7,781 nt of DNA, taken from the IMG/VR virus record IMGVR_UViG_2529292923_000001; one strand, given 5' to 3'. The DNA is from a virus. Lineage: Monodnaviria > Loebvirae > Hofneiviricota > Faserviricetes > Tubulavirales > Inoviridae. Position numbers and translations under genes: made by a program. Below are positions 2,788 through 4,385 of this stretch, one piece after another (the stretch's first letter is position 1; every line of letters starts with the position of its first letter). The notes beneath the pieces were generated by a model that saw nothing but the letters and a program-made list of their open reading frames with translations, was not told where the DNA came from and did no database searches.

Positions 2788-2861
2788 ACATAATTCACCA
2801 CCTGATTATCAAGACCGAAGAACAATAAAGAATGAAAGCATGGAGCCAATCAGCGTCATAA

Positions 2862-4385
2862 TCACCCTGAAAGTGGCCCTGACTTCATCGGTATCAAGCA
2901 GCACACAAAAAGTATCCAGTTGATAATCTTTATTCCAGATATTGAATGTAAAGACAGGACACTGCCCCGTGGAATTGTCAGTGAAAAATCACGCGCAGAA
3001 GGCCACATATTCCACAATGGAGAAATGAATGATGAAGGCTCAGGAGATGAAATATCAGGCGTATCCACTGAAGGTGCAGTGCCAAAGTCATTTGACACAG
3101 TCACGTTAACATTTACCGTAGCATTACCTGTTACAGTGGTACTGCCAGAACCTGTTCCGACTCCAGCTCCTGTACCGCTACCCGTTCCAGTGCCTGTACC
3201 CGTTCCAGTGCCTGTACCCGTTCCAGTGCCTGTACCCGTACCGCTGCCTGTACCCGTACCGCTGCCTGTACCCGTACCGCTGCCTGTACCCGTACCGCTG
3301 CCTGTACCCGTACCACTGCCTGTACCCGTACCGCTGCCCGTACCTCCAACGGGCTTAAAACCGGGGTCAATAACAGGAGGGGTATATTTACCTCCAGAAT
3401 TGCTGGTATCACCACCTGGTGTCGGAGGAATAGCAATAACACCAGATTCTGTAAAACTTGCAGAATCACCGATGCGGAGGTCTACCGTAGAACGATAATT
3501 GTCTACGTCAGCAGAGGAATATTTCAATAAAAACGAAGATATCCCGCGATATTCAGAGAGGCCATCTAATTGTTCAGTCAGCCCGTTAAGAATATCTGCA
3601 ATATCCTGAGATGCCAGATTATTTCCAGAGAAAGATGGCACGTGGAGAGACGATGAGAATGGATTTTCAGTGGTTGCTGCCTCGCAAGTAGAATTACCAT
3701 CAGAATAAAACAGAACCTGACCGTTATCACAAAAAACAGAATCCTCCCTTAACGTTACTGACCAGAATACAAACGAACTCTGGGACCAGGAACCTCGAAA
3801 ATAATAAGCGTAGTAGAATCTGTACCACTCATTATCAACGATACTCTTCGGAGGAGTATAATAAGACGACTGAAGCGAGGCTTTATCTTCAGGAGGTAAG
3901 CACTGAATAACCCGCGCAGCAGCAGAAAACGGCGAAGTACTGGTAACGTAGCAATTATCAAACCCGCCATGCCAGGCCTTGACACCCGCACTCATGGCTG
4001 GAGTGTAATAAAACGCGTTATAGCCGTTTTTATCTAAAACCAATTTTGCCACCTCCTCAGCAAAAGGTTTTCCTGCGGCATAAATTCCAAGACTGACTGT
4101 AGTTACACCAAGACCGTAAGCCAGAGTACTCCACGACATTGCTGAAGCAGAAATCCCGGCAGATGCAGCATAATTTGATGCAAAAGACGCTGCCGCACGT
4201 GAATATCCTGATAACGTTGCCGAAATAGATGAGGCGCTGGCCCCCATTGCAGATAATTTGCGATTAATAATACCGGACAATTCAGAAGAAAATGTTGTGG
4301 TAGTCAGTGTCGCTGTTTCAGCACAGGCGTGATTTGTTAACAAAACGTACAATAGCGACACAGAAATATTTTTCAAAAAACTCAT
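2862..4385 (-). CDS. pIII-like adsorption / minor coat protein with Gly-Thr/Ser linker; C-terminal end apparently frameshifted
   Basis: 507-aa ORF with signal peptide ([22 protein letters not shown]), a long (GTGSGT)n linker and a downstream ISPLWNMW motif resembling the M13 pIII C-domain (NSPLMNNF). It is the largest ORF and lies between the major coat and pVI genes. The ATG is 5 nt after the upstream ORF stop. Confidence 0.8.
3157..3346. repeat. near-perfect 18-bp tandem repeat array encoding the glycine-rich pIII linker
   Basis: Units cctgtacccgttccagtg and cctgtacccgtaccgctg repeated about 9-10 times head to tail on the plus strand. On the minus strand they encode [12 protein letters not shown] repeats. 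Confidence 0.85.

Follow-up and report, generated by a model that had tools for sequence, protein, structure and literature searches.

A pIII-like gene with its C-terminal anchor out of frame in a dif-integrated Escherichia coli inovirus record, probably through loss of one G from a homopolymer run in a draft assembly

Inoviruses of the CTXphi type, such as CTXphi and VAI1/2, belong to the XerCD/dif group, and CUS-1/Ypfphi and UPphi are likewise tandem prophages integrated at dif. For UPphi, public assemblies with split genes I-IV and a g3p linker with varying repeats have been described (PMC7307601). Here we deal with a phage of the family Inoviridae held in the IMG/VR virus record IMGVR_UViG_2529292923_000001, a stretch of 7,781 nucleotides (nt) that is called the window below and to which all coordinates refer unless a label is given. 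This phage resembles the CTXphi type in its dif site next to hipA, its tandem repeats and its lack of an integrase, and also in an initiator of the Rep_trans type (RstA-like), in a divergent segment of an RstR-like repressor approximately 70% identical to CTXphi rstR DNA and in the gene order DUF2523-Zot-secretin. It differs from CTXphi, which is without a secretin of its own, in that it encodes one. In the window, the gene for a pIII-like protein is distributed over two reading frames: the conserved C-terminal anchor is encoded in the -1 frame, the frame break is a single G missing from a run of five (G5), and the missing base is probably an artefact of assembly or sequencing.

The pIII-like protein is also reminiscent of g3p of the Ff phages (M13/f1/fd). 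Its gene occupies the slot after the coat and small-protein genes and right before pVI-pI-pIV, its N-terminus looks, by eye, like a signal peptide, and its linker consists of Gly-rich repeats and varies in length. The C-terminal part has the form SPL...C-(17/18 residues, predicted beta-hairpin)-C, about 8 residues and an Arg, after which come a hydrophobic helix of about 20 residues and a basic end, with the stop codon just upstream of the pVI ribosome-binding site. Indeed, the model predicted for the C-terminal peptide of 59 amino acids (aa) has a beta-hairpin between the two Cys and then a long helix (mean pLDDT 65; helix about 88, hairpin about 52). Sequence homology to M13 g3p was, however, not detected by BLASTP (E = 2.2) or hhalign (probability 1.8%), and the two proteins fall into disjoint sets of PHROGs: 8482, 4150, 22527, 10990 and 1698 for M13 g3p, and 3942, 7187, 815, 21195 and 11232 for the pIII-like protein. 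The identity of the M13 g3p query was confirmed by a 2e-262 match to an "attachment protein" PHROG. The pIII-like protein has no match in Pfam, a profile search of the PDB gave nothing relevant, and Foldseek found no significant match in the PDB for the 59-aa model. Among characterised phages in INPHARED, none matches the window beyond about 170 nt, and tblastn with the pIII-like protein gave no match in this collection. Thus, the resemblance to M13 pIII pointed out in the original prediction holds for the architecture, while homology is not demonstrable by sequence or fold. From its gene slot, linker and C-terminal architecture, the protein may be expected to work like a pIII; membership in the Ff g3p family is not shown.

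The annotated frame of the pIII-like gene and the -1 frame overlap by 127 nt. The -1 frame is open from position 2988, is preceded by a TGA at 2991-2989 and is closed by a TGA at 2811-2809; its extent and peptide had been translated exactly in the original prediction. The closing TGA lies just before the pVI Shine-Dalgarno sequence, as had also been claimed: AGGTGGTG at 2803-2796 begins 5 nt past it, and the pVI ATG is at 2791-2789. An alternative frame open for 59 codons is unremarkable by itself, and the signal beyond chance is in its content, since the 59-aa peptide, searched alone, matches six PHROG families at their extreme C-terminal ends (best match at E = 7.9e-8, profile positions 495-544 of 546), whereas the tail in the annotated frame matches no PHROG family. 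The peptide contains the parts expected of a C-terminal module, namely a Cys loop, a hydrophobic helix and a basic end. Hydrophobicity has no power to separate the frames, because the best 19-residue Kyte-Doolittle mean is 1.97 for the annotated tail and 1.98 for the -1-frame anchor. The tail had been described as weakly hydrophobic, which these values contradict, and only the relatives tell the two frames apart.

The phage is carried at 97-99% identity by 27 complete E. coli genomes, in which the pIII-like gene is a single ORF (open reading frame) of 525-561 aa that reads ...SLTIPRGQCPVF... to an IVLRS* end and stops about 18 nt before pVI. The pIII-type C-terminal module, out of frame in the window, is in frame in all relatives; the C-terminus that they conserve is that of the -1 frame and not the annotated tail. 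A search for full-length homologues returned mostly low-complexity Gly/Thr noise and about eight real homologues, and diverged homologues in Salmonella (…DFKITLPEAQCPVF…) and Burkholderia (…SFQVPAHTGVCP…) also have the module in one frame. The species-representative E. coli genome lacks the phage, a contig scan for the site giving no match. With the PHROG matches and the in-frame module of the relatives, the placement of the anchor in the -1 frame of the window, proposed originally from the letters alone, is well borne out.

The place where the frames should be joined is another matter. It had been proposed that one extra T in the T5 run at 2984-2988 would connect them; a single added base does restore the ORF, but the site is the G run at 2965-2968. 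In the alignment, the only length difference within 2862-2991 is CACGGGGGCAG in the relatives versus CACGGGGCAG in the window. A 71-nt query over the site matches 27/27 complete genomes over 72 bases at 98.6%, and a 100% match to it is absent from these genomes (45 places). With a pattern allowing G4 or G5, the 24-base G5 form was found in 12/12 contigs (8 from IMG/VR and 4 metagenomic), and the G4 allele was seen in none of the 27 genomes or 12 contigs. A change at the T run, with one T missing, can be given next to no credence. Adding the T formally yields one ORF, and PHROG scores fail to separate the two joins (41.6 vs. 39.2 bits and 26.2 vs. 29.5 bits), but the resulting 16-aa junction peptide is unlike any relative, and the residues encoded in the zero frame from the T run to the G run are conserved in the homologues of Salmonella (DFKITLPEAQCP) and Burkholderia (SFQVPAHTGVCP). 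Because no relative differs from the window in the T5 run or its flanks, and the G run is the sole length difference, the true join is at the G run, and the T-run join was ruled out by these alignments. The protein repaired at the G run has 525 aa, the same length as in strain E203449. The number of linker repeats varies by strain (72-nt and 36-nt differences); within one genome, the tandem copies carry the same annotated pIII-like protein despite this variation.

The exact 507-aa product occurs on one contig only, AIEV01000030.1 of the E. coli DEC1A draft (2012, GCA_000249055.2); in the following, L-numbers are labels of the compared loci and contigs, L018 being that of the DEC1A flank. The window starts 382 nt from the end of this contig. 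It differs from the closest complete genome by 15 substitutions, seven single-base indels (insertions or deletions), a change in repeat number and a 99-nt deletion. When the privacy of each change was tested by k-mers against 15 relatives, six single-base indels, three substitutions (at 3747, 2598 and 294) and the 99-nt deletion were found to be private, all within 244-3747. The six indels span 2.7 kb and affect pIII, pVI, pI (twice) and pIV (Table 1). Only three or four of the seven single-base indels are in homopolymers of at least 3 bases, and three are non-homopolymer events. The original prediction had spoken of two morphogenesis genes with homopolymer frame changes; the count is four genes and six private single-base indels, three of them outside homopolymers. 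In pVI, only a TTG at 2787-2785, 4 nt downstream of the ATG, is in frame, and ORF callers give a TTG-started protein of 94 aa instead of the 95-aa MFAIFIAAIN... form. pI is beyond single-base repair because it has received two T insertions and the 99-nt deletion. Among about 15 billion proteins, Zot in its truncated form of 241 aa and the secretin with the altered end (426 aa) each come from one contig, and the intact Zot (352 aa) and secretin (419 aa) from hundreds to more than 1000 contigs. The intergenic T6 run at 4994-4999 is common only to the window and the IMG/VR contig L011; it is a polymorphism of the lineage or else an under-call made repeatedly.

Other copies of the phage are clean in this respect. 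Neither the approximately 88 kb of phage in eight complete-genome loci, including tandem arrays with identical protein accessions in every copy, nor the approximately 46 kb in nine other contigs contains a single-base indel in a coding region, and only two shared intergenic length polymorphisms were seen in about 135 kb of other phage copies. Apart from the window, coding-region single-base indels are found only in three isolate-draft IMG contigs, L010 (5), L011 (4) and L007 (1); all are homopolymer deletions private to their contig, and a different gene is disrupted by each. Apart from indels, only two substitutions separate L011 from the window, and these are private to the window. L007 and DEC1A belong to the same lineage, since L007 has exactly the flank variants of DEC1A, yet it has the consensus alleles at the sites that are private to the window. 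Among these flank variants, as compared with MB64 (L017/L019), are a 6-nt deletion in a first tyrosine-recombinase-like gene (L018 8506) and a 278-nt deletion in a second one (L018 9778); these are lineage polymorphisms and not errors, because L007 has both of them and L010 has the longer one. True lesions do exist in complete genomes: pIV has a nonsense substitution, S84stop, in strain 100117 (L020 5244-6503), with which the annotation of strain 100248 agrees, and an insertion of ISEc62 (IS21 family) in both tandem copies of strain 48956 (L021 7338-10726).

How did the G disappear? Most likely it is missing from the record and not from the phage. An ordinary single-ORF gene for a pIII-like minor coat protein (tip/adsorption) of a dif-integrated, CTXphi-style E. 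coli prophage would have dropped one G of G5 at 2965-2968 in the DEC1A draft consensus, which would throw the last 51 codons into the -1 frame and append a spurious 33-aa tail. A likely origin would be the assembly of a tandemly repeated or multicopy phage from error-prone reads, with the copies collapsed into a consensus of poor quality. The sequences show the site of the change, its privacy to one record, the other private indels found with it and the lack of signals for recoding; a technical rather than a mutational cause is inferred. The private changes have an indel:substitution ratio of 6:3 and include two insertions that do not copy a neighboring base, a combination atypical of natural mutation spectra. 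Both insertions outside runs add the base of a run 1-2 positions upstream (TTTG[T] and AATT[A]), and a base added 1-2 positions after an identical run is the classic carry-forward pattern. The indel pattern is like that of flow sequencing (pyrosequencing type): single-base, assembly-private indels break conserved ORFs, and those in the sister drafts are homopolymer under-calls. The DEC collection presumably stems from the pyrosequencing era. Unlike flow-based errors, these indels are clustered in the phage and not spread along the contig, and this is one of several observations that weigh against an artefact. The adjacent 7.1 kb of chromosome on the same contig, of similar homopolymer density, has no private single-base indel, and the confinement to the phage also holds for L010. 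A simple platform-wide homopolymer error fails, because the indels are not contig-wide. Three of the indels are outside homopolymers, and the 99-nt deletion with its 9-nt repeat and the three private substitutions, within the same 3.5 kb, look more like real mutations. Moreover, the same DEC1A assembly contains two versions of the pIV end, which could be two truly different tandem copies. The suggested scan of the contig for an excess of homopolymer frameshifts thus came out empty in the flank, and contig-wide homopolymer error was rejected; of the two causes originally offered, systematic sequencing error and prophage inactivation, both stay realistic in themselves, and it is the contig-wide pattern that is lacking. 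In several drafts, single-base indels are confined to the prophage, for which a plain platform error model gives no account (244-2969 of the window compared with L018 8164-15302; likewise in L010 and L011).

These observations would be natural if the window were a truly degenerate copy within a dif tandem array, a possibility that we regard as doubtful but serious. Its morphogenesis module (pIII anchor, pVI start, pI and pIV end) would then have been inactivated by real frameshifts, the 99-nt deletion and substitutions, with the replication and regulatory half kept intact, possibly with homogenization by recombination or complementation from an intact neighbor. The ten private changes do all fall within 244-3747, with none in 3748-7781 or in the 7.1-kb flank, and at 306, 294 and 244, where the copy in the window differs, the consensus alleles are present in the 381-nt fragment of a second copy at the contig end. 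Real inactivation of a morphogenesis gene is documented in this phage family by the S84stop and ISEc62 lesions of pIV, and split genes I-IV, of unresolved status, have been reported for other dif-integrated inoviruses of public genomes (PMC7307601). On the other hand, those lesions of complete genomes consist of one nonsense substitution and one insertion sequence, not of clusters of indels; the mutation spectrum of the window is unnatural, as said above; no lesion is common to L007, whose flank is identical; and the approximately 135 kb of other copies, in which tandem copies keep the same intact proteins, have no single-base indel in a coding region. One inactivating change would have been enough, and six in 2.7 kb at near-zero flank divergence would require a rate far above the chromosomal one. 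Frequent degeneration of tandem copies in accurate genomes was considered as well and was rejected on four arrays. It is also conceivable that the indels are genuine and that phage DNA in this E. coli lineage gathers mutations, biased to indels, at a pace well above that of the chromosome beside it, for instance by replication as episomal RF or single-stranded DNA followed by XerCD re-integration. We consider this improbable. If true, it would account for the phage-confined indel clusters of several drafts, and would imply copies defective in morphogenesis but retaining replication and regulation, like RS1-type satellites, beside intact helpers in dif arrays. Programmed -1 frameshifting or transcriptional slippage at T5 or G4, giving anchored and unanchored pIII, is far less probable again. 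There are two overlapping open frames with homopolymer runs inside their overlap, but the gene is one unbroken frame in all relatives, and the two-frame layout is seen in none of the 27 complete genomes, 12 contigs and diverged homologues. No heptamer of the form X XXY YYZ is present in the zero frame of 2862-2991, where GAT TTT TCA and CGG GGC AGT do not fit, and no stable RNA structure was predicted downstream (minimum free energy -24.6 kcal/mol, mean of shuffled sequences -23.4, z = -0.42). Neighboring genes are broken by five more private indels, which cannot all be programmed. Programmed recoding is therefore, on this sequence evidence, effectively excluded.

The case is an ordinary one, an artefact of one record or, at the most, a copy turned pseudogene, and not a new coding mechanism. 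For annotation, the truncated pIII-like protein, Zot and secretin of DEC1A (EHU11067.1, EHU11176.1 and the corresponding WP records of RefSeq) are probably artefactual singletons, and neither natural variation nor recoding should be read from them. In the repaired protein, a conserved C-terminal anchor module is defined that inovirus proteins of Salmonella and Burkholderia have in common, for which there is no Pfam family and which is covered only by PHROGs of "unknown function". If the lesions were real, DEC1A would have a virion-defective copy of a dif-integrated phage, of modest relevance to prophage domestication.

The window encodes a full inovirus gene set on its minus strand, in the order Rep, g5-like, coat, 56-aa protein, pIII-like, DUF2523, Zot and secretin (Table 1).

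Table 1. Positions of genes, sequence runs and changes in the 7,781-nt window
Feature	Position	Strand	Remark
dif-like left half GTGCGCATAATGT	1-13 (read 13..1)	-	prophage-chromosome junction
Private -A just past pIV stop (CATG^TGATG)	243-244	-	
pIV secretin	1533-253	-	
Private G to T in pIV	294	-	
Private +A at 306 in pIV secretin (AATT[A]GTGG)	302-310	-	end altered, 426 vs. 419 aa
Junction of private 99-nt in-frame deletion, pI C-terminal region	1590-1598	-	9-nt direct repeat
Second private insertion in pI (Zot), T4 to T5	1756-1760	-	
Private insertion in pI (Zot), T3 to T4	1785-1788	-	truncates pI at 241 aa
pI (Zot), broken	from 2491	-	
pVI (DUF2523)	2787-2503	-	
pVI start with private +T at 2784 (ATGTTTG[T]CC), codon 3	2782-2791	-	ATG out of frame
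True C-terminal module of pIII-like protein, 51 aa and TGA 2811-2809	2809-2964	-	-1 frame
Spurious 33-aa tail of annotated frame	2862-2964	-	absent from all relatives
pIII-like ORF, 507 aa	4385-2862	-	
Upstream frame of pIII-like gene, correct through ...SLTIPRG	2965-4385	-	N-terminal domain and Gly/Thr repeat linker; co-linear with single ORFs of 525-549 aa in relatives
G4 run (CACGGGGCAG on minus strand), one G short of G5 in relatives	2965-2968	-	actual frame break
T5 run, earlier proposed join	2984-2988	-	unchanged in relatives
18-nt tandem repeat, 9.2 copies, encoding (GTGSGT)n linker	3179-3344	-	
56-aa protein	4560-4390	-	
Major coat	4943-4695, inside ORF 4970-4695	-	
T6 run, T7 in 13 relatives	4994-4999	-	intergenic, g5-like/coat
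g5-like protein	5458-5123	-	
Rep_trans initiator	6694-5468	-	
Other window end ACACGCGTTATGTTGAAAAGG	7781..7761	-	

The window is exactly one unit of the dif-integrated prophage, because both of its ends match the dif junction (1-13 and 7761-7781; L016 340-440 and 8120-8200). On the source contig, the right junction is GTGCGCATAATGT followed directly by ATATTATGTTAAAT, at the E. coli dif site beside hipA, and GGTGCGCATAATGTATATTATGTTAAAT is found at the junction, the prophage being flanked by dif and a dif-like attP half-site. No integrase gene is in the ORF list of the phage unit, which together with the dif site and the tandem arrays implies integration by XerCD. In complete genomes, dif arrays of two to three tandem copies lie next to hipA, and the copies do not differ in their annotated proteins. 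The source contig runs 381 nt beyond the window into a second, tandem phage copy.

A divergent ORF of 71 aa at 6996-7211 on the plus strand overlaps the segment that is about 70% identical in DNA to the rstR region. The similarity to this repressor region covers CTXphi, pre-CTX and the Vibrio phages VAI1/VAI2, and there is no other nucleotide match to characterised phages. The phage is modular, a mosaic for which a second route of integration exists. Some relatives share the structural and morphogenesis half, corresponding to 69-5124 of the window, and differ in the left half (L001 349-3320; L003 350-3321; L020 1-1045), where they have an IS110-family transposase gene and a 667-aa "replication endonuclease"; the variants with this alternative left half are located at yahK-yahJ and hcxB-ybiB, not at dif.

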